A stretch of 64,000 nucleotides of DNA from a virus, in the IMG/VR virus record IMGVR_UViG_3300018875_000001. One strand, 5' to 3'. Every line of letters starts with the position of its first letter. The stretch's first letter is position 1. A program made the translations under genes and the position numbers. Positions 1,982-59,422 of the stretch are shown here, piece after piece. The notes under the pieces are model-generated. The model did no database searches. It was not told where the DNA came from and saw only the letters and a list, made by a program, of their open reading frames with translations.

Positions 1982-2018
1982 TGGCTAACAAAATTTGTAG
2001 CGTAATGCATTTCATTTT

Positions 2019-2061: not shown

Positions 2062-2069
2062 AAGCAATA

Positions 2070-5333: not shown

Positions 5334-5367
5334 ATATAATTCCTCCTTAAAAGAACCTGTTTGTTAT

Positions 5368-5376
5368 ATTGTAACA
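5368..5376 (-). promoter_or_regulatory. Extended -10 element (TGTTACAAT) for the antisense endonuclease gene
   Basis: Minus strand reads TTTTATGTTACAATATAAC...AAGGAGGAATTATAT-ATG. Lies in the last ~20 nt of the intron. Confidence 0.35.
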
Positions 5377-5385
5377 TAAAAGCGG

Positions 5386-13964: not shown

Positions 13965-14081
13965 ATGGAAGTATTATTAGTGGCTGGAACCATTATGATT
14001 ATGACCAACACTATGGTGCTGTTAATGTTAGCACCTACTATTTTAAAAGAGGTGAAGCATGGTGCCACTCGGAAATTTTAA
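13965..14081 (+). CDS. 38-aa single-TM peptide
   Basis: ATG 13965 after AGAGGAGG. MEVLLVAGTIMIMTNTMVLLMLAPTIL... Confidence 0.3.
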   Translation: MEVLLVAGTIMIMTNTMVLLMLAPTILKEVKHGATRKF

Positions 14082-16365
14082 ACGACTCTTTCAACCTAGT
14101 TTAATTCAAAACGAAAAAGACGTATCTTATCATTTGCCTTCTTTATCACGAGCAGAAGCAAAAGCCCTTCTCTCCGCTCCCTTAGCGGGGGGAGGGGTCT
14201 TTGGCCTAGAAGCCCACCAAACAAAAGACCATGAAAGTCTTATTTTTTTTGCTCCGCCTTACTATAAAGTGGAATGGAACCTCGCAGACCGAGACGCTGT
14301 TTTTGAAAATCTTGAAACCTATAAAAAACAAATCACCATCATGCAACTATATACGAGTAAATCCTCATTGTTTCCTCTCTCCATTGAATATACTCAGTCT
14401 TTTTGGGAACAGGTTCGGCAATTTGCAGCTGATGATATCGGAATTATTTATCAAATTGTACTTGCATACCGACAAGACCGATGGAAAGAACGAATCAAGG
14501 AGCAATATCAACTGTATCTAAGTGGAATCCAATCTCCCGCTGATCAAAAATGGGTACGCAGTATTCAAAATCGAATTAATCACTCCTTAGATCATCTCTT
14601 GCAATGGGAGTTCAAATATGCCCCTATTCCTGAAGTGGAACAGAAACTAAAAGAAAATGGATTTCGATATAGTATTCGGCTCATTCTTTATGGCGGTAAT
14701 CGAGCGAGGCGAAGAAAACTAATACATGAAATACAACAAATTTTACGAACCATGGAGTATATCAATGAATGGAAAGTGAATACCTTTTTTGCGTTTGACG
14801 ATATTATTCAGAATATCCAAAAACGCAAGCTCGATAATGTAGGAAAGCAACAAGTCTTATGTGTATCCGAATTGCTGCCATTTCTGATGTCCGAACATGT
14901 AGTGTACATTGAAAAACCGGCCATAAAAAAGGTAACAAAAACAAAGGTAAAAAATCCATTCGATCTCCTGCCGATAGGCAAGAAAATTCAACAAGTCGAT
15001 GGGAGTCAAATAGCTCAAAAATTTGTTTACGCTCTCCAAGAGTTAAAGGTAATTAAAGAAGAAATTGTTGCTAAACGAGTTCAATGTGGGCCAATCATGA
15101 TGAAAATCACCTTTGATTTACCGAAGGGGATGCGTCTTTCGGATATAACAAAGAAAAATATGATTGAGGATATTCAGACTCATATGGGAGTCAAACATCT
15201 ACAGATCTTACAAGGGGAGGATACGGGAGAATTCGATATTATGTTGCCACAAGAAAAAAGGCAAAAAATCTTTTTACGAGATTATGTGGATACCTCTGAA
15301 TTTATGGAGTTTGCCGGACAACATCCACTTCCATTCTTTGTAGGGGTGGACGAAATAGGACGCTCCATTTTTCGTTGTCTAAGTGAAATTCGTCATATTC
15401 TTGTAGCAGGAACAACCGGATCCGGCAAAAGCGTGTGGATGAATCAACTTATTCTTACCTTGTTATTAATTCGCAAACCCGATGAACTTCAATTTTATAT
15501 GATTGATCTAAAACAAGTGGAACTCACCTGCTTTCAAGATTTCCCTCATGTGCGAGAAGTCATCACAGATGCGAACAAAGCTATTCACCTACTTAGGAAA
15601 ATCCAAAAAGAGATGGACAGACGTTATCAATTATTTAGTGAAACAGGAGTAAAAAACATTGCCTTGTATAATAGAAAACATCCTCATCAAAAGCTCCCTT
15701 ATATTGTGTGCATTATTGATGAATATGCGGAATTAGCATTACGAACGGATAGTATACATGAACTCGTTCAAAGTATGGCACAACTCGCAAGGGCTGCTGG
15801 CATCCACTTGATTATTGCAACCCAAGATCCACGAGTTGAAGTAATCCCAGGAATTATTAAGTCCAACATGCCGGGGAAAATCGGTTTCCGTTGCTCTAAT
15901 GGAAACAGTTATCTAACATTTTTAAATACGAAACCACCTTTTAACCTATTAGGAAACGGGGATGGGGTCATGAGCTTTGAGGGGCAAATAGAGGAGCATA
16001 TTCGCTTTCAGGGATGTCTGATTATCGATGATCCCAAAAACGAAGGGCTTGAAAGTCAGTTGATTGCACAAATCGCAAGTCATATGGACGACTATGAAGG
16101 AGTAGATTTACCAGAATTAGAGGAAACAGAAGAAGTGCATATAGAAGAAACAGAGACAGAAATAGACCGACTTAAACGCATTATTGCTCAAACAGGGGAA
16201 ACAAGGGTATCACAACTAAGGGAAATGATGAAAATTAACATCAATCGATTGAATGATTTGATGAGGGAACTCGCAGAAGAAGGGTGGCTGCAAAAGCCAG
16301 AATCCAAACAGCAAGGATACCAATTAATTGCACCAGAAGAGGAATTGGAAAAGTGGAGACAATAA
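14059..16365 (+). CDS. FtsK/SpoIIIE-family dsDNA translocase ATPase, soluble, with a gamma-like C-terminal wHTH
   Basis: Walker A VAGTTGSGKSV, Walker B CIIDEYAEL, IIATQDPR. C-terminal RVSQLREMMKININRLNDLMRELAEEGWL resembles the FtsK gamma domain. No TM segment seen in the N-terminal ~400 aa. Confidence 0.85.
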   Translation: MVPLGNFKRLFQPSLIQNEKDVSYHLPSLSRAEAKALLSAPLAGGGVFGLEAHQTKDHESLIFFAPPYYKVEWNLADRDAVFENLETYKKQITIMQLYTSKSSLFPLSIEYTQSFWEQVRQFAADDIGIIYQIVLAYRQDRWKERIKEQYQLYLSGIQSPADQKWVRSIQNRINHSLDHLLQWEFKYAPIPEVEQKLKENGFRYSIRLILYGGNRARRRKLIHEIQQILRTMEYINEWKVNTFFAFDDIIQNIQKRKLDNVGKQQVLCVSELLPFLMSEHVVYIEKPAIKKVTKTKVKNPFDLLPIGKKIQQVDGSQIAQKFVYALQELKVIKEEIVAKRVQCGPIMMKITFDLPKGMRLSDITKKNMIEDIQTHMGVKHLQILQGEDTGEFDIMLPQEKRQKIFLRDYVDTSEFMEFAGQHPLPFFVGVDEIGRSIFRCLSEIRHILVAGTTGSGKSVWMNQLILTLLLIRKPDELQFYMIDLKQVELTCFQDFPHVREVITDANKAIHLLRKIQKEMDRRYQLFSETGVKNIALYNRKHPHQKLPYIVCIIDEYAELALRTDSIHELVQSMAQLARAAGIHLIIATQDPRVEVIPGIIKSNMPGKIGFRCSNGNSYLTFLNTKPPFNLLGNGDGVMSFEGQIEEHIRFQGCLIIDDPKNEGLESQLIAQIASHMDDYEGVDLPELEETEEVHIEETETEIDRLKRIIAQTGETRVSQLREMMKININRLNDLMRELAEEGWLQKPESKQQGYQLIAPEEELEKWRQ

Positions 16366-18000: not shown

Positions 18001-19293
18001 TTAGAACAGCGAAAATTCCATTTGCCCTTCAATTACTTTACGACTTTTGAATTCTGCCATTTTGAGTTCCACCTCATACACTGCTGTTTCGCATACATGA
18101 TGAGACGAAATACGATAAGAGGCTAATCGCTGCTGTCGTTCTTCTAAAAATTTTTGATTGCTTTCTACAAGCTGACGAATGATTTCAGCTTCAGAGCGAC
18201 TTAATTTCGCATTAAACGGTGGATTGGTTGTAATACATTCAAACTTGATCTCTCTAGCATGGGCTTTTATAATTTGAATTTTTCGATCATCCGAAAGAGA
18301 ATTCCACGGTTGATGCAAATCCTCCTCATATTGAAAAATCTCACGTTTTCGCAAATCTACTGGATGAACAAAAATATCTATTTGTTTACTTTCTTCTTCG
18401 AAAATCCGGATAGGTGCTCGGTATTCTCCCAATAGTGAATTTCCCCAATAAATACGAGTATCCGTATTAAACTCAAAATATCGGTGAATGGTTTTTGTTT
18501 CTGGGTTAATATGCAATCCCATAATCGGTTTTGGCACATATAAAAGAGAAGGCAAAAATAAAAAGGCTTGAATACAAGCCACTTTTACCATCGTTAAACT
18601 TAAATCAGCACCTACTAAATTTAAGCAATTGGATGGCAGCACCATAGCAGCACCACCAATACAAGGTTCAAACTGACTATCCGTAGGAGAAGAATTTAGC
18701 ATCATATTGATAGCTTCTGTTACTTGAATAGGAGTTGGAAAATAATCCAAATGTCCCTTTTGGCCATGTTCAGCCACAAAAGTAGACAATACATCCGTGG
18801 GCTCTAAAAATAATAAATCCAAACTGAATTCCCGATACAACTCTTCCCAAAGAGAATCTGGAATCGAAGGACGTTTGCAATAGCTAATGCCTAATGCATA
18901 ACCAATCCATTCAATAAAATCCGTAATCCGATATCCCCGATGATATACTCGATCCATGCATTTGGTTAACATTTTATAAGCAGGAGTATTCATGATGGGC
19001 GAAGACCGAACCGGATTTTTCGGCATATCTCCATCTTGGTAAGATCCTTTGGCCAAGATAGAAAGCCACGCATACCAACGACCATACAGCATGGTTTCAA
19101 TCATCAAGCCCATTCCACGCATCCAGCCAAACCGGTACGAATCTTTCACATCTTGGGGTGGTTCTGTCCAAAGAGGAGAGTATTGAAGTTCTAATAATTT
19201 TCGTTGAATCTCCAGCCATTGTTCTGGGGAAAGGGAAGCACAGAACTCTTGGCCACGACGTTCCGATTCCAATCGACCATATGATTTTTTCAT
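18001..19293 (-). CDS. N6-adenine DNA methyltransferase-like protein (gamma-type motif order, atypical motif I)
   Basis: DYFPTPIQVTEAINMML (like xFFTPxxV). FEPCIGGAAMVL at the motif I position. LVGADLS. TTNPPFNA (motif IV NPPF). SD GAGGTG. Confidence 0.55.
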   Translation of the reverse strand: MKKSYGRLESERRGQEFCASLSPEQWLEIQRKLLELQYSPLWTEPPQDVKDSYRFGWMRGMGLMIETMLYGRWYAWLSILAKGSYQDGDMPKNPVRSSPIMNTPAYKMLTKCMDRVYHRGYRITDFIEWIGYALGISYCKRPSIPDSLWEELYREFSLDLLFLEPTDVLSTFVAEHGQKGHLDYFPTPIQVTEAINMMLNSSPTDSQFEPCIGGAAMVLPSNCLNLVGADLSLTMVKVACIQAFLFLPSLLYVPKPIMGLHINPETKTIHRYFEFNTDTRIYWGNSLLGEYRAPIRIFEEESKQIDIFVHPVDLRKREIFQYEEDLHQPWNSLSDDRKIQIIKAHAREIKFECITTNPPFNAKLSRSEAEIIRQLVESNQKFLEERQQRLASYRISSHHVCETAVYEVELKMAEFKSRKVIEGQMEFSLF

Positions 19294-19660: not shown

Positions 19661-19849
19661 CAATTCATACTCATCTTTATTTAATACTATGTCACCGCCA
19701 AATGATTCTTCATAAACCGTAACCGATTGATCTTCTTTATCATAGTATTTTACTTCATAGATCTTTCCGATTAAATGTTCAATCGACAATTGTGCGACAG
19801 CAATACGTTGTGTGTCAGGTTTACTTGCGATGACTCTAACCTTCATCAT
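19646..19849 (-). CDS. hypothetical 67-aa protein
   Basis: Start overlaps the stop of the Doc-like gene. No motif recognised. Confidence 0.5.
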   Translation of the reverse strand: MMKVRVIASKPDTQRIAVAQLSIEHLIGKIYEVKYYDKEDQSVTVYEESFGGDIVLNKDEYELVKAN

Positions 19850-20436
19850 TTTACTCCTTTATCCTTTTTGTATCCTTTTTGCATATCGTCCAATAATTTT
19901 TGGAGTTCTTTTCGTTCTTCCATTTCTTTTTCTGTTAAAATTTCCTGAATCTCTAATTCATTTAACAAGTCTATGTATTCTTTATACAATGGTATCAAGG
20001 TTTCCTTGCTTGGTTCCATTCCTTCTATATATTGAGATTCAGGAACGCTGTTTCTTTCTAACCAATCAGCCAATTTTTCCAGACTCCACTTTTTATTTGC
20101 AACCAATTTTGAAACAAAGTATAATTCCCAATCTGATATTACGACCACATATCCGTTAAATTCCAAAAAAGTGGCTGCAGTAATATATGCTGTACGTTTG
20201 TTTCCATCCACAAAGTACTGACTTGTGGCTAGAGTATGCATATATACTGCAGCTTTGGTAAATAAACCTGGATATGGTTCATACGTATGCCCACCAAAAT
20301 CATAAGTTTGAAACGGTTTATATGCCAGACTATCAATAAGACCTGGTTCATACTCACCAGGCAACCCACCAAACTCTTGTAGAGCCATGTCATGAAACAT
20401 TCGAATATGTTTGGGCTCTAAAGATTCAATGTTCAA
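19846..20436 (-). CDS. doc: Doc/Fic-family (death-on-curing-like) protein with a Gln at the catalytic His position and a 65-aa C-terminal extension
   Basis: ...FGGLPGEYEPGLIDSLAYKP...LFTKAAVYMHTLATSQYFVDGNKRTAYITAATFLEFNGY. The motif reads SQYFVDGNKRT, against the family consensus HxFxDGNKRT. Confidence 0.7.
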   Translation of the reverse strand: MNIESLEPKHIRMFHDMALQEFGGLPGEYEPGLIDSLAYKPFQTYDFGGHTYEPYPGLFTKAAVYMHTLATSQYFVDGNKRTAYITAATFLEFNGYVVVISDWELYFVSKLVANKKWSLEKLADWLERNSVPESQYIEGMEPSKETLIPLYKEYIDLLNELEIQEILTEKEMEERKELQKLLDDMQKGYKKDKGVK

Positions 20437-24469: not shown

Positions 24470-24554
24470 TCTTTTTCCTCCTTATACTCGGTATAATTTT
24501 GTTTTACTTAGGGAAAAGTAAAACCAATCCTTATATATAAAGGTGGTGAAAGAA

Positions 24555-24740
24555 ATGTCACGCAATACAAATCAAATTCTCGTACCTACAGCTCAACAAG
24601 CATTAGAGCAAATGAAGTATGAAATTGCTCAAGAGTTTGGTGTTCAACTTGGAGCAGATGTCACTTCTCGCATCAATGGTTCTGTCGGCGGCGAAATCAC
24701 TAAGCGTTTGGTGGCTTTAGCGCAAAGTCAATTGCGCTAA
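24555..24740 (+). CDS. ssp: alpha/beta-type small acid-soluble spore protein (SASP)
   Basis: [49 protein letters not shown] closely follows the SspA/B/C pattern (...[26 protein letters not shown]). SD AAAGGTGGTGA before ATG 24555. Confidence 0.9.
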
Positions 24741-25303: not shown

Positions 25304-25543
25304 TCAAACACTTTTCTTGATAATATCTTCGCTAAGAAACTTTAAGACTACAGGATTCTTCTGTTTTTTCAGCCATCGAATATAAGCGACATTATCTGCT
25401 CCATAAGTCCCGCTTCGCTGACTAAATGGCACCTCTTGTTCAAATTGCTTCCACAAACGAAGATGTTCTTCCGGATATGCTGCTGCAAAAGTATTAGTAA
25501 TAAAAATGGAACTTGCAATTGTATCAAGACTCATATTACGCAC
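25304..25543 (-). CDS. hypothetical protein
   Basis: Overlaps the upstream ORF. No motif recognised. Confidence 0.5.
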   Translation of the reverse strand: MRNMSLDTIASSIFITNTFAAAYPEEHLRLWKQFEQEVPFSQRSGTYGADNVAYIRWLKKQKNPVVLKFLSEDIIKKSV

Positions 25544-25989
25544 TCCTCAAATAAATTCATTTGGTTTTGATCAGAAATTCCCCAATAGTTCATAACAATC
25601 CCATCTTTTACGGCATATTCTTTCTCATCAACTACATATATACCGTCTGGAAATAAGACAAATTCGTCATCCATATTTCTAAATTGAATCAAATCTCCAA
25701 TTGCGGCACCCTTTAACATAGAGAGGCCTATCTGCCCATCTTCAGTTTGCATAAGCTGACCTAATGGTGTTAATTTTCGAAACGAAGTGACAACTGTTTT
25801 CTCCACAACGATTTCCAATTGAAACTGCATACGACAAGAAGGACATGCATACAGTTCTTCATCCGATAACTCATGGTCATATGATTCCCATAACCGTTCT
25901 GCTAGTCGATCTTCTAATCCTACATAAAACGAATCTCCACAAGAGCAAAAAATATGACCATTAGAATATTGAATGCTCACAATCTTCAT
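25531..25989 (-). CDS. hypothetical Cys-pair (zinc-ribbon-like) protein (start 25989 or GTG 25980)
   Basis: CSCGD...CPSCR. AAAGGAG abuts ATG 25989, so GTG 25980 has better spacing. Confidence 0.5.
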   Translation of the reverse strand: MKIVSIQYSNGHIFCSCGDSFYVGLEDRLAERLWESYDHELSDEELYACPSCRMQFQLEIVVEKTVVTSFRKLTPLGQLMQTEDGQIGLSMLKGAAIGDLIQFRNMDDEFVLFPDGIYVVDEKEYAVKDGIVMNYWGISDQNQMNLFEECVI

Positions 25990-26029: not shown

Positions 26030-27358
26030 TTATTCGACTTCTTGAAAATCGGATTCAAACGGATTAAACTCAAATTCTGGAATGCCTTGGAAATCTTCAA
26101 TTTCCACTGGCGCATTATAATTAATTTGAACGCTTCGTACTGGAACATAAAGCTGCACACAATCTGGGTTTCCATTATTTAGTAAGCCTTTAAATGGTTG
26201 AATACCTGACGGTTTATTTGGCGCAGACGGCAAAAACTCAAAACGAATATAATCGTCATTGTTGTAGCGAGAAAGAGCTTCTTGTAAATAACGAACATTG
26301 ACCGCTACAATCACATCAGCCCCTTTTCCTTCCGTAGTAGAAATATCTTGCTGGAATGAACCAACTTCTTGTTCACGAGTATTGACTCGCATTTGATTAA
26401 GTTCTGGTTTGATACGAATAATAATCGGCTCATCCGTATTATAAACCGTAGAGTTATTGAGCAATTCCTTAAATGAACCAGCATGAATTACTACTGAACT
26501 TGCAGATTGTGATGAGTCAAAAATCAAACGATCTGTATCTGGATAATTTCCTTCTAATAATCGAGCATATAATGTAACATCTTCAAACTCATAAACCACT
26601 TGAGTTGGATAAAAGTGAAGAATGACTTCTACTTCAGTTGCATCTAAGTGTTTTTTCACTTCTTGTAATACCGCTGCTGGCACAGTCATTTCCACATTTG
26701 TATGTTCTTCATCCAATTCGTAAACGTACTGACTTAATCGATGAGAGTCAGTGGCAACACATTTAATAACACTGCCAGAAATCTTATGAAAGACTCCTGT
26801 TAAAATCGGGCGTGTTTCTTTAGTGGATACCGCATAAACCGTATGATCATAAATACGACTTAATACATCTGGATGAATAGAAACAGAAGTAATCTTTTCA
26901 CCTAAATCCGGTGTACGTGGAAATTCATGTCCATCTAATCCGTGTAAATCAAAAGTTGGGCGACCCGATTTGATAACAGCCACTTTATCATGAATACGTA
27001 TCTCAGTATTTTTGTGATTCAGTTTCTTGACAATTTGAATAAATTTATCGCCCGGAAAACAAATGGAACCCGGCTTTCCTTCTGTAATTTTAAAATTCGT
27101 TCCTTCTTTATTTTGAGTTGCTACAGCTTCTGTTAAGTAATCGTTATTAATGCCACGGAAAATCAAACGATCTTCTTGAATTTCCATGTAAATGAATTTA
27201 TAAATTTCCTGTACGGCCTTTTTCGCTACAGAACGTTCTACTTTGCTTACCAGTTTCTTGAGCAAATCTGTTTGAATTGCTAATGCCACATGAGTTTTTA
27301 ATTCCTCTTCAATTTCTTGATCAATTTTTTCTACATCAATACCTTGTAATTCTAACAT
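26030..27358 (-). CDS. dnaN: DNA polymerase III beta sliding clamp (DnaN-like) with a ~45-aa N-terminal extension
   Basis: ...RPILTGVFHKISGSVIKCVATDSHRLSQY... follows the DnaN pattern (P.L.GV......L..VATDSHRLA). Three-domain length. SD AAGGGAGGA. Confidence 0.8.
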   Translation of the reverse strand: MLELQGIDVEKIDQEIEEELKTHVALAIQTDLLKKLVSKVERSVAKKAVQEIYKFIYMEIQEDRLIFRGINNDYLTEAVATQNKEGTNFKITEGKPGSICFPGDKFIQIVKKLNHKNTEIRIHDKVAVIKSGRPTFDLHGLDGHEFPRTPDLGEKITSVSIHPDVLSRIYDHTVYAVSTKETRPILTGVFHKISGSVIKCVATDSHRLSQYVYELDEEHTNVEMTVPAAVLQEVKKHLDATEVEVILHFYPTQVVYEFEDVTLYARLLEGNYPDTDRLIFDSSQSASSVVIHAGSFKELLNNSTVYNTDEPIIIRIKPELNQMRVNTREQEVGSFQQDISTTEGKGADVIVAVNVRYLQEALSRYNNDDYIRFEFLPSAPNKPSGIQPFKGLLNNGNPDCVQLYVPVRSVQINYNAPVEIEDFQGIPEFEFNPFESDFQEVE

Positions 27359-40560: not shown

Positions 40561-41757
40561 TTAAGAAAAAGAAATTACGGTAGATTCTACCACTTCAGAA
40601 GGCAATTCGTCTAAAAATCGAGAAGGTTTATAGATACGAGATTTTCCGTCTTGTTGTGATCTTTGTTCTGCCCATGTGATCAATAATTCTTTTTCTGCAC
40701 GGGTAATACCAACATAAGCCAAACGACGTTCTTCTTCGATATCTTTTTCACTTTGACTTCTCCAAGAAGGAAATATGCCTTCATTCCAACCGATGAGAAA
40801 TACTACTGGGAATTCTAATCCTTTTGAAGCATGCATCGTCATCAAACGAACAGAGTCTGTTTTCTTATTGTTTTCAGAATCTGTCACTAATGAAATGTCT
40901 TGTAAGAAATCTTCTAAGGTTTTATCTGGATTTTCTGTTTCATATTTATCGACAAGAATAAGAAACTCTTTTAGATTGTCAATTTTCTCATCTGCTTTCT
41001 TGTCGTTTTCATAATACGCCCAAAGACCTGATTGTTCTAATACATAACGAACATAAGTGGACATTAGTAAGCCGCTTTCTAATTTCTTTTCAAAGTGATC
41101 GAGCAAATCGATAAATGCTGTAATTTTGCTAAGTGAACGTTTATTGATACTTGGAATGTCACTAGCATTTTTTAAAGCTCGATACACACTGACTTTATGA
41201 ATATGTGCGTATTCTTCAATTTTATCTTGAGAGGTCTTACCAATTCCACGAGATGGCTTATTCAGAATACGCAAAATAGCTGTATCATCTTTTCGATTAA
41301 AAATCGATCTTAGATACGCAATGGCATCTTTAATCTCTTCCCGATCATAAAAACCGTGACCACCAATGACTTGATATGGAATAAATTGATTACGGAAGAA
41401 GTCTTCAATGACTCGAGACTGGGCATTTCCACGATATAAAATGGCAAAATCCTCATATTTGTATCCATCTTGAAGAACCTTCTTTTTAATCATGGCTGCA
41501 ATATAAGCGGCTTCTTGATATTCATTTCCACAACCAATGACTTTAATGGTTTCTCCTGGCTCTCTTGGTGTTCGTAATGTCTTTTCTTTTTGGTGTTTAT
41601 TGTATTTTACTATTTCATTTCCTGCATGAACAATATTGCGAACAGAACGATAATTTTGTTCTAGTTTCACAACAGTAGCTTGTGGAAAATACCGCTCAAA
41701 ATTCAGAATAATATTAATATCAGAACCACGGAAACCATAAATGGCTTGATAATCGTC
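40561..41757 (-). CDS. uvrD: UvrD/PcrA-family SF1 helicase, exon 2
   Basis: Begins DDYQAIYGFRGS (motif III after VVG of exon 1), then ...LEQNYRS..., ...TMHASKGLEFPVVFL..., ...RRLAYVGITRA. Confidence 0.85.
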   Translation of the reverse strand, partial: DDYQAIYGFRGSDINIILNFERYFPQATVVKLEQNYRSVRNIVHAGNEIVKYNKHQKEKTLRTPREPGETIKVIGCGNEYQEAAYIAAMIKKKVLQDGYKYEDFAILYRGNAQSRVIEDFFRNQFIPYQVIGGHGFYDREEIKDAIAYLRSIFNRKDDTAILRILNKPSRGIGKTSQDKIEEYAHIHKVSVYRALKNASDIPSINKRSLSKITAFIDLLDHFEKKLESGLLMSTYVRYVLEQSGLWAYYENDKKADEKIDNLKEFLILVDKYETENPDKTLEDFLQDISLVTDSENNKKTDSVRLMTMHASKGLEFPVVFLIGWNEGIFPSWRSQSEKDIEEERRLAYVGITRAEKELLITWAEQRSQQDGKSRIYKPSRFLDELPSEVVESTVISFS

Positions 41758-42240
41758 CGTAAATCTTGGAATTTCATCGCATATACACTTTGACCATAAT
41801 TACCAACTACATTGTAATAACCATAACAGGCTATTACAGGAAGGAAGTTGATAAATATGGGTTGGTTATCCACCAAACAAGAAGCAATGAAACGCCATTA
41901 CATTGCGGTATGGCGGTAAACAACAGGTAAAGCGCATCTTTGAATACATATACAAGGATGTAACCATTTACCTTCAAAGGAAATACGAGAAATTCTCTCT
42001 GCTATTCTCATAGCAGACGAGACCATATCTTCACTCTCTTTCAAGAGGTCCGGCGCTTCGGTTGTAGGAGTTTCACCTGCACCCTACTCCCTTTCGGGAT
42101 GGTCGTTACACCTTCCTCATATGAGGCTTGGCACGGGATTGTCTCTCGTTACCGAGTCACTTCCCCCGTTAGCAACGTGTCCTTCTCACGTCACACCCTG
42201 CAAGTACAGGTTCACCGGATTTAACGTGAGCTAACAATTA
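41758..42240 (-). mobile_element. Group I intron without an intact ORF, inserted in helicase motif III
   Basis: Splits LFVVG|DDYQAIYGFRG in phase 0. The 5' exon ends in U and the intron ends in G. The minus-strand core reads GAGACAATCCCGTGCCAAGCC...GAAGGTGTAACGACCATCCCG...GGGAGTAGGG...GTGAAGATATGGTCT, nearly as in intron 1982-3294. Confidence 0.8.
41857..42013 (+). pseudogene. Decayed C-terminal remnant of a LAGLIDADG endonuclease gene, antisense to the uvrD intron
   Basis: Plus-strand frames give MGWLSTKQEAMK... and, after a frameshift, ...LRYGGKQQVSASFEYIYKDVTIYLQRKYEKF*. Compare FGYRFGGNGLYAKFVNFLYNNATIYLERKHY (32258-33067) and IYEYCTICLNRKYQRY (2070-3008). Confidence 0.45.
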
Positions 42241-43023
42241 ACCCACGACAAACAAATTGTATTGCGGCGCAGCAAGTAATAATAATAATTGAAATTGTGC
42301 ATAGTTGGCATCTTGATACTCATCACTCATGACATATTGAAATTTTCCTTGCCAATAATCACGAGCTTCCGGATAATCACGAAGCAAAATCACTGTATTC
42401 ATAATGAGATCGCCAAAATCCATTGCGTTCATTTGCTTCATTTGGAATTGATAATGCATATACACTTGTGCCATGACTTGCTCATCAGCTGTTTCAGCTA
42501 CGTGGTATGTACAGTATTCTGGATCCCATAGATTGTTTTTGGCATTATCTATATAGCTGAGTGCATACCCAGGCTTGTATTTGTCTTGAATCCCCATTTG
42601 CTTATAAATACGCTCAATGACTTGCAAAACATCGCCTGTATCATAAATAACAAACTTGCATCGTTTGTTTTTTTCATCTTGCTCATATCCTAATAAATGA
42701 CCGTGTTTGCGTAAAATGCGTACACATAAGCTATGAAATGTACCCATCCAAATGTGCTTCATCGGTTCTTCGCCCACTACTTTTTCTAAACGTTCTTTCA
42801 TTTCCCGAGCAGCTTTATTGGTAAATGTAGCACAAAAGATATTTTTTGCTTGAATTCCTTGCGATAGCATATTAGCAATTCGAACTGTTAAGGTTTTTGT
42901 TTTACCGGACCCGGCTCCCGCTAAAACAAGAACCTGACCATTAATCGTCGTAGCCGCTTCTCGTTGTTCTGGATTAAGTTCATTAAGCATATTTGATACT
43001 TCCCATAAATTTAATGTAGACAT
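42241..43023 (-). CDS. uvrD: UvrD/PcrA-family SF1 helicase, exon 1
   Basis: LNPEQREAA...VLAGAGSGKTKTL (Walker A), FTNKAAREM, MSDEYQDANYAQF (motif II). Ends LFVVG and then a stop. Confidence 0.85.
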
Positions 43024-43941: not shown

Positions 43942-45543
43942 TTACGATAAACGACGTTTCGCCTGACTAATTAATAATGGATGTACTTGGGATAATTGAC
44001 GATACAACTCTTCAAACGTTTCCCGAATATCCCATTGTGCTTCTTCGGATGTGCGAAGATTGATCAAATGATAAGCTTCCCATAAATCAAAACTAGCAAA
44101 TATATGACGACGATGTGCATTTAACACCACATATTCGGCTTCATTAGAAAAACCTGCTTCCACTAGTAAATTATACAATTCTTTAGATTGTTCAGCAATG
44201 TCTTTCAAGAGATTCTCTAATCCAGCTTCTTTAATTCTTGGTGGAATGGTAATTCCGAAATGTGGTGTTGGATTGGAAAAGACAAAATCTGTTTTCCGAT
44301 TATGTCTTAATAACTGATGCCAGTTAGCTTCAGATACAAAAAATTCGACCTGATATTGGACATGTTTAAATTCTTCTGGTGCCATATCAAAGTGCTGCAT
44401 TTCAAACAACAAATCTTTGATGATTTGTTCTTGTTTTTCTTTTCCTAAACACTTGGCTTTGTAATAAGCTGCCTTATACGGCAAATCTTCATGTTTCATC
44501 AACAATAAAGCAATAATATGCGCAATGATTTCACTTTCCATTTTGACACTGCTTAAAACCGCTGATTTAGATGAAGCGGTTATTGTGTTTCTTTCTGTAA
44601 AATGAGTTTCCATTCGTTTTTTGGAATTTCGCTGATATTGCGAAGGTGTAGCGTATTTCAATAATACTGGTAACACCTTTGAAATCTCAGTTCGAATATC
44701 TTCAGCTAGTTTTTGAGATTCCTTGTGTTTTGAATTACCTAATACTGCGAGTGCATCTCGCCATGCTCGACCATTGGCCGTCATACCAAGTTGAGTATAC
44801 ATTGAAAGCGGCAAAACATAACGAGCATCTTCAAAAGCCAATTTTTCTAATACTGAATCCTTTTCTTCTGGATATGTTTTCTTGAGATACTCAAATACTC
44901 CCTTAATTAACTGCTCAAATGCATCAAACGCTTTATGAAAAAATTCTTCTACTGTTATACGAATATTTTCACTTTCTTTATCAATAGGATTATGCCATTG
45001 ACCACGTTCAGGTTTTTGGTAACGCTGACTATATTCCGTAATAGATAAGAAAGAATTGGCGAGCTCTAGTTCTGCAGAAGCCAATCGAGAAATGCTTTCA
45101 ATCCCCACATGAGCCACAGCATGTTCAGCAACAGAAGAATGACCATAGCCCACAGTCCACTTTTCGTGAAACTTTCTTGCCTTTTCATCGAGTTCTTTGA
45201 AGGATTCAATGCGTCCTCTAATGTCGTGGTCCTTGAGGGCGATTTGAAGATGTTGTTTAAACGACTTGGGAGAACGTGATACCCAGGCAAATAGGGTTGC
45301 AATGAACTCTTCTGGCAATCCGACAATTGCATAAACAGGTCCATCCACGTTAGTGACATAGGGAGAAATATCAACTTCTTTTATTTGGTGTTCGTTCGGG
45401 GAAACCCCTTCACCACTTTGGCCAGTTTCGGATTCTTTTTCAGACCCTTCAAGGCGGTCTTGCTTCCGATTCCTATTCTTTTTGGAGTTTGTTTGATTTT
45501 CTTCATGGAAATCATCCTTTATTTCTTTTATTAGCTTAGACAT
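43942..45543 (-). CDS. thyX: ThyX-like flavin-dependent thymidylate synthase with tandem Thy1 domains
   Basis: N-terminal half: GYGHSSVAEHAVAHVGIESISRLAS...SITEYSQRY (S..E.SQRY retained, RHR lost). C-terminal half: WHQLLRHNRKTDF (RHxR retained, SxRY lost). At 533 aa it is about twice the length of a single-domain ThyX. Confidence 0.6.
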   Translation of the reverse strand: MSKLIKEIKDDFHEENQTNSKKNRNRKQDRLEGSEKESETGQSGEGVSPNEHQIKEVDISPYVTNVDGPVYAIVGLPEEFIATLFAWVSRSPKSFKQHLQIALKDHDIRGRIESFKELDEKARKFHEKWTVGYGHSSVAEHAVAHVGIESISRLASAELELANSFLSITEYSQRYQKPERGQWHNPIDKESENIRITVEEFFHKAFDAFEQLIKGVFEYLKKTYPEEKDSVLEKLAFEDARYVLPLSMYTQLGMTANGRAWRDALAVLGNSKHKESQKLAEDIRTEISKVLPVLLKYATPSQYQRNSKKRMETHFTERNTITASSKSAVLSSVKMESEIIAHIIALLLMKHEDLPYKAAYYKAKCLGKEKQEQIIKDLLFEMQHFDMAPEEFKHVQYQVEFFVSEANWHQLLRHNRKTDFVFSNPTPHFGITIPPRIKEAGLENLLKDIAEQSKELYNLLVEAGFSNEAEYVVLNAHRRHIFASFDLWEAYHLINLRTSEEAQWDIRETFEELYRQLSQVHPLLISQAKRRLS

Positions 45544-51944: not shown

Positions 51945-52778
51945 TTAGACTTCTCCTATTAAAGTCATCTCTTTTTGTCGCTGTTCATAGCGAATGGAGC
52001 AAGTCTTGTTGCAAAACGATAAATCTGAAGTAAGAATATGTCCACAACATTTGCAGGTACGAGCATTCTGCATCTGTTGATTGTATTCATCTGCATATAA
52101 AAATTTAAGTTCTCCCATACGGATACTTGCAGGACCGAAGATGACACGCTGATTGGAAGAACCAATAAACCAACCTTCATGCATATATGCATTGGTTGTT
52201 AAACGCTTATCTTGCTGATAATCACCGTCTACAATCATATCTATATAAAGCATGAGCTCCTTTACATCTTCTGGTGTTAAAATGGTAAATTCTGCTTTCT
52301 TAGCAGTAAGTGTCCAATTTGTTGTTATTGCCCGATCAAAGCACTGATAGGAATGAGAATACCTTAATAAAGCGTCAAACATGGCCTTTCCATGCTTTTC
52401 ACGAATCCATGTGAATTTCAACCCATACTTCATCAGAGTATCTAATTTATAAGCAGTGTACATTACAAAATGAAACGTAGGATCGATGTCTTTTAACCGT
52501 TTCGCTACTTTTGCAATAGCTCTGGCTTGAAGTATCGGTTCACCTCCACAGAATGTGACTTGCCGATTCCAAGCCGTTTTTACACATATATCGACTACTT
52601 CATCAATAGTCATTTCTCGATATAATCCTTCAAAAGTCCATGTACTCTCATTAAAGCAACCTTGACAGGGAGAAATGACTCCACGAATACAGCCTTTCGT
52701 GAAAAACTCTAACCGTTTTCCCGGCCCAGCTGTCGTTGTATCACGATTTACACCAATAAAACGTAAAATATCAGACAT
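51945..52778 (-). CDS. Radical-SAM activase of the NrdG / QueE-like 4Fe-4S family, with a C-terminal zinc ribbon
   Basis: GPGKRLEFFTKGCIRGVISPCQGCFNESTW (GPG.R...F..GC...C.GC.N pattern), VTFCGGEPILQ, C-terminal CKCCGH...CNKTC. Confidence 0.6.
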   Translation of the reverse strand: MSDILRFIGVNRDTTTAGPGKRLEFFTKGCIRGVISPCQGCFNESTWTFEGLYREMTIDEVVDICVKTAWNRQVTFCGGEPILQARAIAKVAKRLKDIDPTFHFVMYTAYKLDTLMKYGLKFTWIREKHGKAMFDALLRYSHSYQCFDRAITTNWTLTAKKAEFTILTPEDVKELMLYIDMIVDGDYQQDKRLTTNAYMHEGWFIGSSNQRVIFGPASIRMGELKFLYADEYNQQMQNARTCKCCGHILTSDLSFCNKTCSIRYEQRQKEMTLIGEV

Positions 52779-55906: not shown

Positions 55907-56380
55907 TTATCCTTTTTTCGCTCCCTTAACGACGGGTACAATATGTTTTTTATCTTTATCAATGGTCATTTCAGTGCGTTCACTAGAAAGTTCTGGGAAA
56001 TCTCCTTCTAGAAATTCCCGTACTTCTTCTAATGTCATGTTATCTTTTGGAACAGGAATTTTGTGTCCTGCATAATACACTGTAAATTCTGCGCCAACCG
56101 TTTCTATTGTTTTTGCTTTAGATGTTGTTTTTTTGATTTCTGCTTTTGTTTCTTTTTTCTCTTTTTTACTTGATGATGATTTTTCAGTCTTTTTTGTGGA
56201 AACTGGTTGTATATCCCCAAACAAGTCCAATTGTTGATCTTCTTCAGGAACTTCAATATCATCATCAATGTCATCTAAATCAGGAGCTTTGGTTTCTTGT
56301 GATTCATCCTCCGGCTCTGTTTGATATACCTGGATGTTTTGGTTTTGTTGTTCTTGTTCTTTTTCAAATTCCATGTTCAT
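55907..56380 (-). CDS. Ubiquitin-like (Prok_Ub / PRTRC protein C-like) protein ending in Gly, with a ~95-aa acidic then Lys/Ser-rich N-terminal extension
   Basis: C-terminal ~60 aa: FTVYYAGHKIPVPKDNMTLEEVREFLEGDFPELSSERTEMTIDKDKKHIVPVVKGAKKG*. This fits the prokaryotic Ubl pattern (f.y.G..l.dP...mt.eeV...y...yPeL......v....G.KG-end). SD TAGGAGGTATTACT. Confidence 0.55.
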   Translation of the reverse strand: MNMEFEKEQEQQNQNIQVYQTEPEDESQETKAPDLDDIDDDIEVPEEDQQLDLFGDIQPVSTKKTEKSSSSKKEKKETKAEIKKTTSKAKTIETVGAEFTVYYAGHKIPVPKDNMTLEEVREFLEGDFPELSSERTEMTIDKDKKHIVPVVKGAKKG

Positions 56381-56402
56381 AGTAATACCTCCTAATGATT
56401 TA

Positions 56403-57086
56403 CTAATTTATAATTGACTCTGCCCATTCGTGAAAAGTCAAATTCTGAGGGGCAGGACGTAAAATACTGTAATCAAAAGGTTTTCCTTGTGATTCCTCAA
56501 GCAATTGTCGAAGTGGCTTACTGGTTAAATTTACTTGTCTCGGAAAATACAAGTGATCATTAAATGGCGTATGAAGCCATCGGTGTGGAAAGGTCTGTAG
56601 CTGAACTAAATCTTTAACAGTTTCATCACTGTAATAGCACATACGACCATTTTCGTATACGTTGGAATACGGATAGCGATAAAGCTTAGTATCATCTCGT
56701 AAAAAACGGTCTTTGTAAGCAAACACTTGGCGATTAGAAACTCGCTGATTTTTTACCGCAAAGAAAAACACCAAATTAGGAAACGGAACGTCTTGAAACA
56801 CGCTTTGATGGTATTGAACAGTCGCTGTTGTTTCCGGATACGAAAGAAATACTAAATGGGATTCATCGCTTTTCTTTGCATATTTGACAGTATTTAGAGG
56901 CAATGATGGACTAATTAAAATCGGTTTTGCCGGTTCCTCTTTTGGTTCATTGTAATCCTCTACCAATGAAGATAATAAAAGTTCTGCTAATTGCTGCAAA
57001 GTAAGATGTAACGTTCTTTGTATTCCATTTTCCTCAAGCTCTACTTTAGCTAATTCCAGATTATCAAGTGTAATCACTGCTTTCAT
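56403..57086 (-). CDS. UBC-like E2 (Prok-E2 / PRTRC protein B-like) with a candidate catalytic Cys
   Basis: VPFPNLVFFFAV...TKLYRYPYSNVYENGRMCYYS parallels the eukaryotic E2 HPN(I/V)xxxGxICL block. ...HRWLHTPFNDH follows. ATG 57086 after CAGGAGGGATTATT. ATGA overlap with the upstream gene. Confidence 0.6.
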   Translation of the reverse strand: MKAVITLDNLELAKVELEENGIQRTLHLTLQQLAELLLSSLVEDYNEPKEEPAKPILISPSLPLNTVKYAKKSDESHLVFLSYPETTATVQYHQSVFQDVPFPNLVFFFAVKNQRVSNRQVFAYKDRFLRDDTKLYRYPYSNVYENGRMCYYSDETVKDLVQLQTFPHRWLHTPFNDHLYFPRQVNLTSKPLRQLLEESQGKPFDYSILRPAPQNLTFHEWAESIIN

Positions 57087-57586
57087 AATAATCCCTCCTG
57101 CATAGAGGATGATAATGATTCTTGAGTGTTTTGTGTGGCTTTTTGAATATCCTGTTGAATTTGACTTAAAGCCATCCATAAATTTGACAACAAGCTCGAA
57201 AACATAGGGGTGCTATAATATTCAATCGTAAAATATCCGTCTTCTTGCCAATCCCCTTCAAAATCTTCGTAGTATAAACCTGAAGTTTGAACAGCATTTT
57301 TTATGGTTTCTTTTACTTGGGAAACCAGTATTTCTGGTATCATAGTCCAATCAAATAGAAAAGCAATTTCATAACAATGAGGGGTATCTGGTTCGTTTTT
57401 TGCTCGGAAAAAACGAAAACGATGTTCTAATCGTGTGATCGCCCGAAGAAAAAAGTCTTCACCATTAATGCTTTGGTGTTTATCTGTTATATAATCTTCT
57501 CCAAGGTCATATAGAAATTTCATCATCATGACAACATCAATGGTTTCTGCAATTTCGTATCGTTCTTCTTCATAAAGAAGACTCAA
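57083..57586 (-). CDS. hypothetical protein of the E1-E2 cassette
   Basis: ATGA overlaps at both ends. No JAB (HxH...SxxD) or other motif recognised. Confidence 0.55.
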   Translation of the reverse strand: MSLLYEEERYEIAETIDVVMMMKFLYDLGEDYITDKHQSINGEDFFLRAITRLEHRFRFFRAKNEPDTPHCYEIAFLFDWTMIPEILVSQVKETIKNAVQTSGLYYEDFEGDWQEDGYFTIEYYSTPMFSSLLSNLWMALSQIQQDIQKATQNTQESLSSSMQEGLL

Positions 57587-57924
57587 AAGAATGCAACCTC
57601 CCTTCTTACGGTAGGCATCTGGCCTAAGTATTGAATAATATCTTCAATCTGAAACGATTGAACCCCAATATGATCCCAATCCTCGTCATAAGCTCCTGCT
57701 TCATAGGAAGGCCAATACATCACCATATCTAATATCCATTCCAATTCTTCCTGGGTAACAGATTGAAGAAATTCATCTGTAATGTTTTCCCTCCTCATGA
57801 TTTCTCGGTACAATCGGAGTATGCGATAATTGATTTTACGCTCTTGATCTGAATAACGATTATTAGCCGACTGTAAAGATTCCATAAATCTAGAAAAATC
57901 AAACCGCTTTTGCTTGTTTTTCAT
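57583..57924 (-). CDS. hypothetical protein of the E1-E2 cassette
   Basis: SD GAGGTGGTCTTCAG. Overlaps the E1 gene's 3' end by 26 nt. Confidence 0.55.
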   Translation of the reverse strand: MKNKQKRFDFSRFMESLQSANNRYSDQERKINYRILRLYREIMRRENITDEFLQSVTQEELEWILDMVMYWPSYEAGAYDEDWDHIGVQSFQIEDIIQYLGQMPTVRREVAFF

Positions 57925-58762
57925 CTGAAGACCACCTCATCATTTGTTGCTCCTCAATATACATAGGACGCATTAACATGGTTTGAGCATTGAAATTAAC
58001 ATAGTGTGACATAATCATGGATTCAGACAAAAGCATATTCAAATAACTCATCATTACAAGTGCAGCAGTTTCATTGGTTTGCATGCGCTGCGGATAATAC
58101 AAAACTTGTTCTCCACATGCTTGCGTAGGCAAACGAGAATCGGTGTCTTCTAAAATATCCGGATATACCATTCCTACAGGTTCCAAAATTAATTGAGAAT
58201 ACCATTTGAATCCACATACAACTTGACCGGAGTATCCCATCTTCCGCTGAACCGAAGGAATTTCCTCTGGGTTCACGGAGTCAATTCCACTATCGATATA
58301 AACAATGGTTGACATTTTTTCAAATAGTTGATGCATAATTTGACGGGTAGCATTATTATCCACACACCCCAATAAAACAGGAATGTCCACATAAAAATGG
58401 GAACGATGATAAGAAAATAAATCCTGCAATTCCTTTACCTGTTCGATATAAGAAGCCCGATAATGGATCGGGATTCCATATGCATTACTGTAACGATTGG
58501 CTAACACTTCTACTTTAGGAAGTCCTATATCTTGCTCAATAAAAGGCTGACGGTATACATTTTTCGGTTCTACCTGATCTCCGTCTACAATGACATAGCG
58601 ATATGAAAATAATTCATTTTGCTGTGATAAGCTATACAATAATTTGGAAAGGCGTTGCAATAAGTAACCTCCATTTCCACCTGTGCCAATTTGAATAATC
58701 TCAAAATGAAAATATTTATTTTGAGCAATGCGATCCCGCAATGAAATAACAGGTCGATGCAT
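57899..58762 (-). CDS. ThiF/MoeB/E1-like adenylyltransferase
   Basis: IQIGTGGNGGYLLQRL (GxGGxG nucleotide loop), IVDGDQVEPKNVYRQPF (D.D.V..sN..RQ), LLGCVDNNATR. 287 aa, adenylation domain only. SD GAGGAGGTAAGGGG. Confidence 0.75.
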   Translation of the reverse strand: MHRPVISLRDRIAQNKYFHFEIIQIGTGGNGGYLLQRLSKLLYSLSQQNELFSYRYVIVDGDQVEPKNVYRQPFIEQDIGLPKVEVLANRYSNAYGIPIHYRASYIEQVKELQDLFSYHRSHFYVDIPVLLGCVDNNATRQIMHQLFEKMSTIVYIDSGIDSVNPEEIPSVQRKMGYSGQVVCGFKWYSQLILEPVGMVYPDILEDTDSRLPTQACGEQVLYYPQRMQTNETAALVMMSYLNMLLSESMIMSHYVNFNAQTMLMRPMYIEEQQMMRWSSDEKQAKAV

Positions 58763-58774
58763 CCCCTTACCTCC

Positions 58775-59422
58775 TCAGTTGGTTTTCCGATGTGTCTCCC
58801 CTTTTCTCTTTCGAATAACAGTTAAGCGTCGTTGAGTTCCTTTTTCTGGACGACCTAATCGACGTGCAATCTCACGATAATTCATACCACTTTGCCACCA
58901 AAACCAAGCTGCTTCATCTTCCTCCTGTGTCCAATTCGTAGGACGTTTTACCTGTTTTGCTTTTGTGATTTCTTCATCTAGCCATTTTGGTTCTGGGAGA
59001 ATGATTCCTCGTTTGATATGTGCAAAATTTACTCGTTCTTTATGTAATTCGATCCATTTCCATAAATCATAGGGATCAATGAAATAACGATATCGCTTAT
59101 CTGATTTTGTTACTTTATGTAATTGTTTGGCTTTTAGACCAAAATGGCAAATCCATTGAATCACGGTGCGATGATTGACACCAAGAGCTTCTGCTACTTG
59201 TGGAGGAGATAAAAGACCACCTGCAAGATTCATATCTTGAAATCCCATTAATTCTTTATACTTTTGATGGATGGCCTCTTTACTGCGTTTTAAATGTCTT
59301 ATAAGATAGCTCATACTTTTTATTCCATATGATTCCAATAAAAACTCTTTATCCTTATCGCTCCATATCCTTTTCTGATTGAGATAAGAATGTTTCTTTG
59401 ACTGCTGCAAGAGATTCACCAA
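58775..59422 (-). CDS. DNA-binding protein with two Myb/SANT-like repeats flanking an HTH
   Basis: RIWSDKDKEFLLESYG..., LSPPQVAEALGVNHRTVIQWI, NWTQEEDEAAWFWWQSGMNYREIARRLGR. The start is uncertain because the ORF overlaps the upstream ORF by 68 nt. Confidence 0.5.
   Translation of the reverse strand: MVNLLQQSKKHSYLNQKRIWSDKDKEFLLESYGIKSMSYLIRHLKRSKEAIHQKYKELMGFQDMNLAGGLLSPPQVAEALGVNHRTVIQWICHFGLKAKQLHKVTKSDKRYRYFIDPYDLWKWIELHKERVNFAHIKRGIILPEPKWLDEEITKAKQVKRPTNWTQEEDEAAWFWWQSGMNYREIARRLGRPEKGTQRRLTVIRKRKGETHRKTN

Follow-up and report, generated by a model that had tools for sequence, protein, structure and literature searches.

Introduction

Operons that combine an E1-like adenylating enzyme, an E2-like protein, a JAB isopeptidase and a ubiquitin-like protein (Ubl) were predicted, as type 6d, by Iyer, Burroughs and Aravind in 2006 (PMC1779556). 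The hallmark of their E2 is a conserved cysteine accompanied by an absolutely conserved downstream histidine, which replaces the histidine of the HPN motif (PMC1779556). Their JAB has an N-terminal domain with a conserved Arg and Trp, and it neighbours E1 or the Ubl or is fused to one of them. Cassettes of this family are common on plasmids, integrative and conjugative elements (ICEs) and some phages. We take the type 6d operons to be what NCBIfam/TIGRFAM calls the PRTRC system (TIGR03734-03742; ParB-related, ThiF-related cassette) and what Pfam covers with Prok-E2_D, Prok_Ub and Prok-JAB. Here we analyse a cassette from a 64,000-nucleotide stretch of viral DNA, hereafter the window, taken from the IMG/VR record IMGVR_UViG_3300018875_000001. 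It consists of genes for an E1-like protein, two small proteins that we call unkB and unkC, an E2-like protein and a Ubl, and from their sequences these five genes probably form one operon and a working, deubiquitinase-free version of the type 6d/PRTRC conjugation cassette.

The window cassette resembles the type 6d/PRTRC systems in its stand-alone E1 without a rhodanese domain, in an E2 that has the conserved Cys and a downstream His instead of the HPN His, and in the conserved Gly at the end of a small Ubl; for all three proteins, PRTRC models are the best library matches. Its relatives in Bacillota, unlike the window, also keep a JAB protein with a conserved W and R in its N-terminal part. 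It departs from the described systems in having no match to JAB/PRTRC_A, ParB or PRTRC D, E and F, in placing E1 first in the operon, in a Ubl that has a 90-residue disordered tail and is encoded mature, and in its carrier, which is a large phage-like element and not a plasmid or ICE.

Phage-borne versions exist in the jumbo Bacillus phages KLEB27-3 (vB_BauM_KLEB27-3, OM634661, gp194-199), Edson (PV796108) and vB_BceM_WH1 (LC597490), whose clusters contain an E2 homolog (~29% identity), an E1 homolog (30-34%) and a small upstream gene ending in DFI. Unlike the window, they include a JAB-N+JAB protein annotated as 'PRTRC_A domain-containing' (E 1e-27 with a hidden Markov model, HMM), an extra protein of ~510-560 amino acids and a multi-repeat Ubl open reading frame (ORF), in the order Ubl...E2-JAB-E1. 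The cassette genes of these phages are annotated just as hypothetical, "PRTRC_A domain-containing" or "ThiF", and a literature search found no publications on KLEB27-3. In Edson (L033, 1-681) and KLEB27-3 (gp199; L034, 3-419) the ORF upstream of the unkB-like gene shows several weak Ubl-HMM repeats, and its product may be a poly-Ubl protein instead of one Ubl with a tail. A first-pass annotation of the window, made from the letters alone, had singled out the cassette as a candidate for an undescribed system. This was overstated, since it is a derived branch of a predicted family of which JAB-containing jumbo-phage versions are already in GenBank.

Other known systems share parts of this design. 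CBASS Cap2, Bil and Bub are bacterial Ubl operon families that have been reported experimentally to conjugate (PMC11601603). Like Bil (BilABCD), Bub and type II CBASS Cap2/Cap3, the window cassette has E1, E2 and a Ubl (or Ubl-like C-terminus) with a Gly end, its chemistry being predicted from the genes; unlike it, those are host anti-phage or stress systems equipped with a deubiquitinase (JAB/Cap3, BilC, Bub peptidase), and their E2s belong to other families. Phages Lambda and T1 encode TAPI, a Ubl with a conserved C-terminal Gly (PMC1779556), and the window Ubl is likewise phage-encoded and Gly-terminal. TAPI and TAPK (JAB+NlpC) are found in a tail gene cluster, with a JAB and without E1 or E2, whereas the window cassette, which lacks a JAB, is surrounded by genes of replication and recombination.

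Results

A compact five-gene cassette

The five minus-strand ORFs proposed in the first-pass annotation are all present, with identical gene calls on public contigs of the same element (Table 1). They had been described as tightly coupled, and this is largely so: E1 and unkB overlap by 26 nt (57899-57924) and unkC and E2 share an ATGA at 57083-57086, but the junction between unkB and unkC is TTGA and not ATGA, unkC starting with TTG. The gap from E2 to the Ubl gene is 22 nt. Every start in the cassette is preceded by a GGAGG-type ribosome-binding site, that of the Ubl gene being a strong AGGAGG.

Table 1. Features of the cassette and its candidate partner in the window (aa, amino acids; AF2, AlphaFold2).
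Feature	Coordinates	Strand	Length	Remarks
E1-like adenylating enzyme	57899..58762	minus	287 aa	ThiF family, closest to PRTRC_ThiF
unkB accessory protein	57583..57924	minus	113 aa	library-negative, conserved by jackhmmer
unkC accessory protein	57083..57586	minus	167 aa	TTG start; library-negative, fast-evolving
E2-like protein	56403..57086	minus	227 aa	Pfam Prok-E2_D
Ubl	55907..56380	minus	157 aa	tail 1-90, beta-grasp 91-157, Gly157 then stop
QLDLF motif of Ubl (residues 50-54)	56219..56233	minus		in disordered tail; fits clamp-binding consensus QL[S/D]LF
Predicted beta-grasp domain of Ubl (residues 91-157)	55910..56110	minus		AF2; C-terminus ...VVKGAKKG
Phage beta sliding clamp DnaN	26030..27358	minus	442 aa	TIGR00663 and Pfam DNA_pol3_beta domains 1-3

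The reading of the fourth gene as an E2-like protein, which had rested on the resemblance of its sequence blocks to the active site of ubiquitin-conjugating (UBC) enzymes and to Prok-E2/PRTRC-B proteins, is upheld by profile searches and by conservation. The protein scores 42.3 bits with Pfam Prok-E2_D (PF14460; gathering threshold 25) and 29.4 bits with PRTRC_B, and a wide protein search returned 29 homolog clusters, all of which carry a precomputed PF14460 assignment. Across a 19-sequence alignment of homologs 37-69% identical to the window E2, the predicted catalytic Cys150 in GRMCYY (nt 56637-56639) is invariant, as are Y92, H93, N176 and D177, and H178 of the TPFNDH block is nearly so (at least 90%). 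Cys150 and NDH 176-178 together match the type 6d E2 signature. The AF2 model built from this alignment has a mean predicted local distance difference test score (pLDDT) of 82.9 and shows a small N-terminal beta domain, a helix at 30-42, a seven-strand meander, the Cys150 loop and three helices, a predicted order of elements that is congruent with the UBC fold, though more elaborate. Against a viral structure library the model has a single strong match (E 2e-11) and also matches two proteins of uncultured phages.

The first gene had been read as a ThiF/E1 adenylation domain, and Pfam ThiF confirms it above the cut-off (42 bits; cut-off 28.1). Its motifs are GxGGxGG, DGDxVExxNxxRQ and VDNNxTR, with Cys216 in LPTQACGEQ; among 23 family members conservation is complete at G26, G28, D60, D62, N68, Q72, K83, D135, N136, R140 and D157, 96% at G31 and R90 and 91% at C216. 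NCBIfam PRTRC_ThiF (TIGR03736) matches at 77.1 bits (E 1e-21; trusted cut-off 144.75), and we read the protein as a homolog, not an equivalog, of PRTRC_ThiF. Membership of the ThiF superfamily also invites another reading, namely sulfur-carrier or adenylation-only chemistry like that of ThiF-ThiS or MoeB-MoaD, in which a thiocarboxylate would serve phage nucleotide or cofactor modification and proteins would not be conjugated; the resemblance of a Gly-terminal Ubl to ThiS/MoaD and a radical-SAM gene at 51945-52778, 3 kb downstream of the cassette, would fit it. We hold this to be very improbable and have rejected it, because the E1 scores only 19-29 bits on true ThiF/MoeB models (cut-offs 152-275) against 77 on PRTRC_ThiF, the E1 is always accompanied by an E2-like protein whose Cys is invariant, and relatives have JAB isopeptidases fused to the Ubl. 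Moreover, the Pfam tables for the neighbourhood list neither a rhodanese or cysteine desulfurase nor a synthase for thiazole or molybdopterin, and no other thiamine or molybdopterin genes; the kinship with MoeB/ThiF sulfur-carrier enzymes that the first-pass annotation had named as refuting its reading is not borne out.

A modifier that is born mature, and no JAB

In the AF2 model of the Ubl (20-sequence alignment) residues 1-90 have a pLDDT of ~50 and form a disordered tail that is first acidic and then Lys/Ser-rich, whose lysines might, as proposed at first reading, serve as acceptors, and residues 91-151, with a pLDDT of 81-90, fold as beta-beta-alpha-beta-beta (strands 100-103 and 106-109, helix 117-127, strands 136-141 and 146-151). 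Prok_Ub is the sole Pfam match in eight of the 20 clade Ubls, and one fused relative scores 27 bits with Prok_Ub and 31 bits with Prok-JAB. The window ORF ends in ggagcgaaaaaaggaTAA, that is, in GAKKG followed by a TAA stop. This exact termination in Gly had been remarked on from the sequence, and it is a property of the clade: all 23 members end in GxKxG and a stop. In the wider family a Gly occupies the equivalent position in 135 of the 137 representatives with an alignable end (in 56 it is the last residue, in 29 it is followed by 1-10 more, and 52 extend further or are fusions). Relatives illustrate both kinds of extension: seven loci encode a fusion in which JAB begins immediately behind the KKG of the Ubl, and in five others the Ubl runs 2-4 residues past the Gly. 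The end point of the window Ubl aligns with the junction between Ubl and JAB in the fused proteins. Since the gene stops at the Gly where relatives have an extension or a fused JAB, the Ubl appears to be made already mature.

The absence of JAB and ParB partners, noted earlier for the window, extends over a larger region. We surveyed precomputed Pfam tables for all called genes in ~84 kb of the ~216-kb element, reaching ~10 kb beyond each end of the window, and found no JAB or ParB match. An HMM for JAB-N+JAB built from the relatives, which recovers the proteins of phages Edson and KLEB27-3 at E 1e-27 to 1e-28, gave a best E of 0.43 in the window and of 0.26-0.43 across the window and three other loci of the phage clade, namely the IMG/VR contig that carries the same cassette (L001), L003 and a related contig of Oceanobacillus profundus (L006); the two related contigs from Bacillus subtilis (L029) and Priestia megaterium (L030) have no Pfam JAB on record. 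The first-pass statement that no ORF of the window contains HxH...SxxD was not literally correct, as one 42-aa plus-strand ORF does; this is a chance match, and the conclusion drawn from the statement is unaffected. We read the pattern as loss of JAB in this phage clade. As the Ubl is born mature and no JAB accompanies it, modification would need no processing and would be irreversible.

Relatives and descent of the cassette

Searches with E2 alone recovered 23 loci in reference genomes, and others were obtained by exact-protein look-up. Several E2 relatives reside on contigs of 186-225 kb in assemblies of B. subtilis, Bacillus velezensis, Bacillus atrophaeus and P. megaterium. The order E1-unkB-unkC-E2-Ubl without JAB is shared by the window, the 191-kb IMG/VR contig and the ~195-225 kb contigs of Oceanobacillus, B. 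subtilis and Priestia, which answers the search for five-gene synteny suggested at first reading. It had also been noted that the gene order differs from that of known cassettes, and the difference is indeed clear: E1 stands in front here, whereas chromosomal and plasmid relatives in Bacillota, including the plasmid-like locus L031, are arranged as unkB-unkC-E2-Ubl-JAB-E1, with a small protein and a ~165-aa protein in the first two positions. The JAB of these relatives has the motif E...HSH...S..D and an N-terminal domain with conserved Trp and Arg; with PRTRC_A it scores E 1e-15, and with Prok-JAB it exceeds the cut-off. Another phage-like contig (L032) carries unkB, a positional unkC, E2, an extra gene and the Ubl, with E1 ~3 kb downstream. 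Altogether, the gene order of the relatives, their JAB and the ends of their Ubls identify the window cassette as a derived JAB-less branch of type 6d/PRTRC with a modifier that is encoded mature.

One could alternatively see the loss of JAB, a defining component, together with the missing ParB partner and the reshuffled genes, as the signs of a decaying and non-functional remnant. This seems highly improbable. The ORFs are intact and translationally coupled, catalytic residues are kept at 37-69% identity over 29 E2 clusters from several host genera, and a Ubl stop right after the mature Gly in 23 of 23 clade members is adaptive rather than degenerative; on the intact, conserved five-gene arrangement and the position of this stop we rejected the remnant reading.

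The two middle proteins were initially described as having no recognisable motif and as novel. The first part stands, with no match for unkB or unkC in Pfam, NCBIfam (none at E <= 1), PHROGs or PADLOC; PHROGs was uninformative for the other three cassette proteins too. Their novelty as phage accessories did not survive, as jackhmmer and hhalign reveal conserved accessory genes of the Bacillota branch instead. Local jackhmmer identifies unkB with a small gene that precedes E2 in 19 loci, among them JAB-containing cassettes of bacteria and plasmids. The middle of the protein is acidic, and at its C-terminal end a conserved patch rich in [KR] leads into F-[FIL]. All its homologs end in this way (RREVAFF in the window, at 57583-57600; KKRFF or EDDFI in others), and the terminal F-[FIL] reads as a second conserved short peptide of the system. 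Homologs of unkC occur at the same position in the IMG/VR, Oceanobacillus, B. subtilis and Priestia contigs, and hhalign relates the unkC profile to the ~165-aa gene at the same position of the bacterial cassettes (probability 91.5%, E 8e-7). We conclude from this homology that unkB and unkC are conserved family subunits and not phage inventions. A hidden JAB or peptidase among them was considered and rejected, as neither has a conserved His/Cys/Ser/Asp catalytic pattern.

A clamp-binding-type motif in the Ubl tail

Little of the Ubl tail is conserved beyond an N-terminal LEFEKE and the QLDLF motif, whose Q50 and F54 never vary and whose L53 hardly does; the peptide that spans it is EEDQQLDLFGDIQ, and AF2 gives the segment a pLDDT of ~50-60. 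Members of the clade show QLDLF, QLNLF, QLELF, QLALF, QMALF, QFSLF, QISLF and QLNMF. The beta-clamp-binding consensus is QL[S/D]LF, with positions 1, 4 and 5 critical, and the clients of the B. subtilis clamp carry QLSLF (PolC), QLDLF (Pol Y1), QLNLF (Pol Y2), QLELF (Pol I), QMGLF (DnaE) and QLSFF (MutS); PolC and a core QLDLF peptide bind B. subtilis DnaN with micromolar affinity, and DnaE much more weakly (bioRxiv 10.64898/2026.05.27.728225). The Ubl variants are thus of the same kind as bona fide clamp-binding motifs of B. subtilis, and partly identical to them. As in PolC, Pol Y1, Pol Y2, Pol I and MutS, the motif lies in a disordered segment and keeps positions 1, 4 and 5, the pentapeptide being identical to that of Pol Y1; unlike in these clients, it sits on the modifier and not on a polymerase or repair enzyme, and clamp binding is here a prediction.

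The pattern Q[LFMIS][SDNAE][LIM]F occurs in 22 of the 23 tails of the phage clade (mean in shuffled tails 0.03) and in 15 of 21 tails of relatives found through E2 (shuffled mean 0.04, maximum 2). Family representatives at 50% identity have a Gln-type motif in 50 of 144 cases (shuffled mean 0.8) and the shorter [SDN][LIMF]F in 114 (shuffled mean 13.5, maximum 22), mostly near the N-terminus and followed by a charged linker of ~60 residues. All 108 window ORFs, 19,283 aa in total, contain just three strict matches: the one in the Ubl, an internal one in ORF 18001-19293, and one at the extreme C-terminus of ORF 25531-25989. The last of these is a minus-strand ORF of 152 aa without a family match, located directly downstream of dnaN and ending in QNQMNLFEECVI; its product probably regulates the clamp or is one of its clients. 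A DnaN (TIGR00663 200 bits, cut-off 137.65) and a Pol III alpha-type polymerase are both encoded by the phage itself, and this DnaN is a candidate docking partner of the Ubl tail.

Three points count against the clamp. Kinship within clades inflates the motif counts, although between clades the tail around the motif cannot be aligned; the Gln is present in only about a third of the family tails (50/144); and the universal core, [SD]-L-F, could equally dock on E1, E2, unkB, unkC or JAB-N. In the main rival explanation the cassette is the same, the tail motif is an internal docking peptide for E1, E2, unkB, unkC or the JAB-N of relatives, and the targets have nothing to do with the replisome. 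Eukaryotic E1, E2 and E3 enzymes recognise short motifs, which provides an analogy. A family-wide core of just [SDN][LIMF]F (114 of 144 tails), co-occurring everywhere with the same enzyme set, is the pattern expected of a site within the system, and the conserved terminal F-[FIL] of unkB hints that docking of hydrophobic peptides may be a theme of the complex. However, the phage clade and many Bacillota relatives fit the clamp consensus at all five positions, with the same variants as real B. subtilis clients, and the motif remains constant across very divergent lineages, which suits the conserved DnaN better than the fast-evolving unkC. We regard internal docking as possible, though we would not favour it.

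The carrier element and its neighbourhood

The cassette lies in the replication/early region of a phage-like element of ~216 kb from the Bacillus group. Its location in a phage, as first proposed, is backed by PHROG matches in the window (polymerase, exonuclease, FtsK-like protein and phrog_8638), by an endolysin-type Amidase_2-LysM gene on the element (Pfam) and by the same cassette on an IMG/VR viral contig of 191 kb, a locus found through E1; a search of IMG/VR with E2 returned no related loci. No structural genes were seen in the ~84 kb inspected. Megablast of the cassette against GenBank phages gave no match, so that the phage is not a sequenced isolate. Related contigs in isolate assemblies of cultured Bacillaceae, namely B. 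subtilis GCA_017601115.1 (205,935 bp), P. megaterium (225,526 bp) and O. profundus (194,705 bp), are separate and ~200 kb long, which suggests that such a jumbo phage persists as an episome or in a carrier state, or that it lives as a phage-plasmid.

Genes for a single-stranded DNA-binding protein (SSB), RecA, a uracil-DNA glycosylase (UDG), a helicase, a primase and the clamp neighbour the cassette, and the region is of early type, with many small unknown genes around it. Such a setting would also be that of an anti-defence device, directed against host Bil, Bub or CBASS Cap2/Cap3 or masking or modifying the phage's own proteins, and host Ubl-conjugation systems that act against phage are known (PMC11601603). 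We consider this improbable. PADLOC is blank for E2, Ubl, unkB and unkC and finds just marginal E1-E2 (Cap2) matches for E1 (E 0.0014-0.04), the nearest relatives, on plasmids and chromosomes, have ParA/Rep-type neighbours and no recognisable defence contexts, and no link of the cassette to Bil or CBASS components was seen.

Directly upstream of E1 and in the same orientation lies a gene (58775-59422, minus strand) for a 215-aa helix-turn-helix (HTH) protein with two motifs of this kind (HTH_23 and Sigma70_r4_2-like), and this protein might regulate the cassette. In the B. subtilis and Priestia contigs the position is taken by similarly sized genes whose HTH matches are weak or absent.

Other genes of the window

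The Pol III alpha-type polymerase is in three pieces within 491-6742 (PHP and pol3_alpha at 491-2005, pol3_alpha and finger at ~3241-3981, HHH_6 at 5522-6742), separated by a LAGLIDADG ORF (2070-3008) and an HNH_repeat ORF (4257-5333, minus strand). A split polymerase with such ORFs between its pieces suggests introns or inteins with homing endonucleases. A UvrD-like helicase, present as two minus-strand ORFs with the UvrD-helicase part (40561-41670) and the UvrD_C part (42238-43023) and ~570 nt between them, might likewise be interrupted.

An alpha/beta-type small acid-soluble spore protein (SASP, Pfam) is encoded at 24543-24740 on the plus strand, opposite to its neighbours, and an FtsK/SpoIIIE-like gene spans 14059-16365; together they hint at an interplay with host sporulation. 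Minus-strand genes also encode a Fic-domain protein (19846-20436), a ThyX-type thymidylate synthase that is unusually long at 533 aa (43942-45543) and a radical-SAM/Fer4_12 protein (51945-52778), which is followed by a 380-aa unknown. Between 46.4 and 50.7 kb an AAA ATPase (phrog_8638) is found with DUF1257 and DUF2997 genes.

Discussion

Our comparison places the window cassette in the type 6d/PRTRC family and points to a conjugation system that works without processing or deconjugation. Several observations weigh against this reading. All NCBIfam PRTRC matches lie far under their trusted cut-offs, including those of E2 (PRTRC_B, 131.45) and of the Ubl (PRTRC_C, 16.2 bits versus 45.95), and the Ubl falls short of the Prok_Ub cut-off as well (PF14454, 19.4 bits versus 25). 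With JAB, ParB and D/E/F missing on top of these scores, the cassette is not a PRTRC system sensu stricto. Foldseek searches with the models gave nothing significant, the best E being 0.13 for E2 against the PDB and 0.25 for the Ubl, and sequence searches of the PDB with the E2 and Ubl profiles and with E1 found no related chain. Below the threshold, the E2 model matches Ubc2, Rad6, UbcH7, UBE2D and UBE2N (E 0.5-3, TM at most 0.32), and PB1, UBL and protein G/L beta-grasp domains are prominent for the Ubl. The predicted order of elements in E2 and the beta-beta-alpha-beta-beta arrangement at 91-151 of the Ubl agree with the UBC and beta-grasp folds expected in the first-pass annotation, but no known UBC or ubiquitin structure is matched significantly. 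Given the non-significant PDB results for both proteins we claim no structural confirmation; the fold evidence from the models is consistent, without amounting to independent proof. In addition, the absence of JAB applies to ~84 kb, and a JAB or other isopeptidase may be encoded elsewhere in the element. A literature search found no experimental study of PRTRC/type 6d function.

If the reading is right, established E1/E2 chemistry outlines the steps that conjugation would follow. E1 would adenylate Gly157 of the Ubl, which would pass as a thioester to Cys216 of E1 and then to Cys150 of E2, and would finally be joined by an isopeptide bond to lysines of target proteins. unkB and unkC might act as adaptor or specificity subunits, a role that is a guess. 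With no JAB the modification would not be removed, which would suit a lytic phage.

The tail motif suggests where these steps might take place. QLDLF could dock the Ubl on the beta sliding clamp, either that of the host or the phage DnaN, so that conjugation would act at the replisome. We propose this tentatively, as a serious possibility. There, conjugation could covalently mark or occupy either the clamp or proteins that bind it, or else furnish a tagged protein with a clamp-binding handle. The position of the cassette among replication genes is in keeping with the idea, as is the habit of the family of travelling on replicating mobile elements with ParA/Rep/ParB neighbours. The more general proposition, that the Ubls of type 6d/PRTRC cassettes on mobile elements are clamp-directed modifiers, attached at the replisome by E1 and E2 with unkB and unkC, and irreversibly so in the phage branch, is more doubtful. 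Internal docking of the tail on a protein of the cassette is the main rival to the clamp, the anti-defence, sulfur-carrier and remnant readings being weaker.

Eukaryotic PCNA signalling by ubiquitin and SUMO modifies the clamp itself, with modifiers that lack a peptide for clamp binding. The likeness to our proposal is conceptual, in that a ubiquitin-like modifier would work at the sliding clamp, and the proposal, if true, would describe a prokaryotic or phage counterpart of that signalling. Its purpose could be to close host clamps to host polymerases or to bring tagged proteins to phage forks.

What is new here is an E1-first phage branch without JAB in which the Ubl is pre-matured, the recognition of the two unknowns as conserved subunits, and a clamp-binding-type motif, as judged by its sequence, on a Ubl tail. 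A literature search for a clamp-binding motif on a ubiquitin-like protein, or for the function of a Prok-E2, found no precedent. Having no processing step, no deubiquitinase and five small coupled genes, the cassette makes an attractive minimal system for reconstitution. With the tail motif, the whole family gains a first concrete hypothesis of its function, namely that it acts at replication forks, be they those of the mobile element or of the host. If this hypothesis is true, bacterial viruses would apply ubiquitin-like tagging to the replication machinery, and the parallel between bacterial and eukaryotic clamp regulation would be extended.

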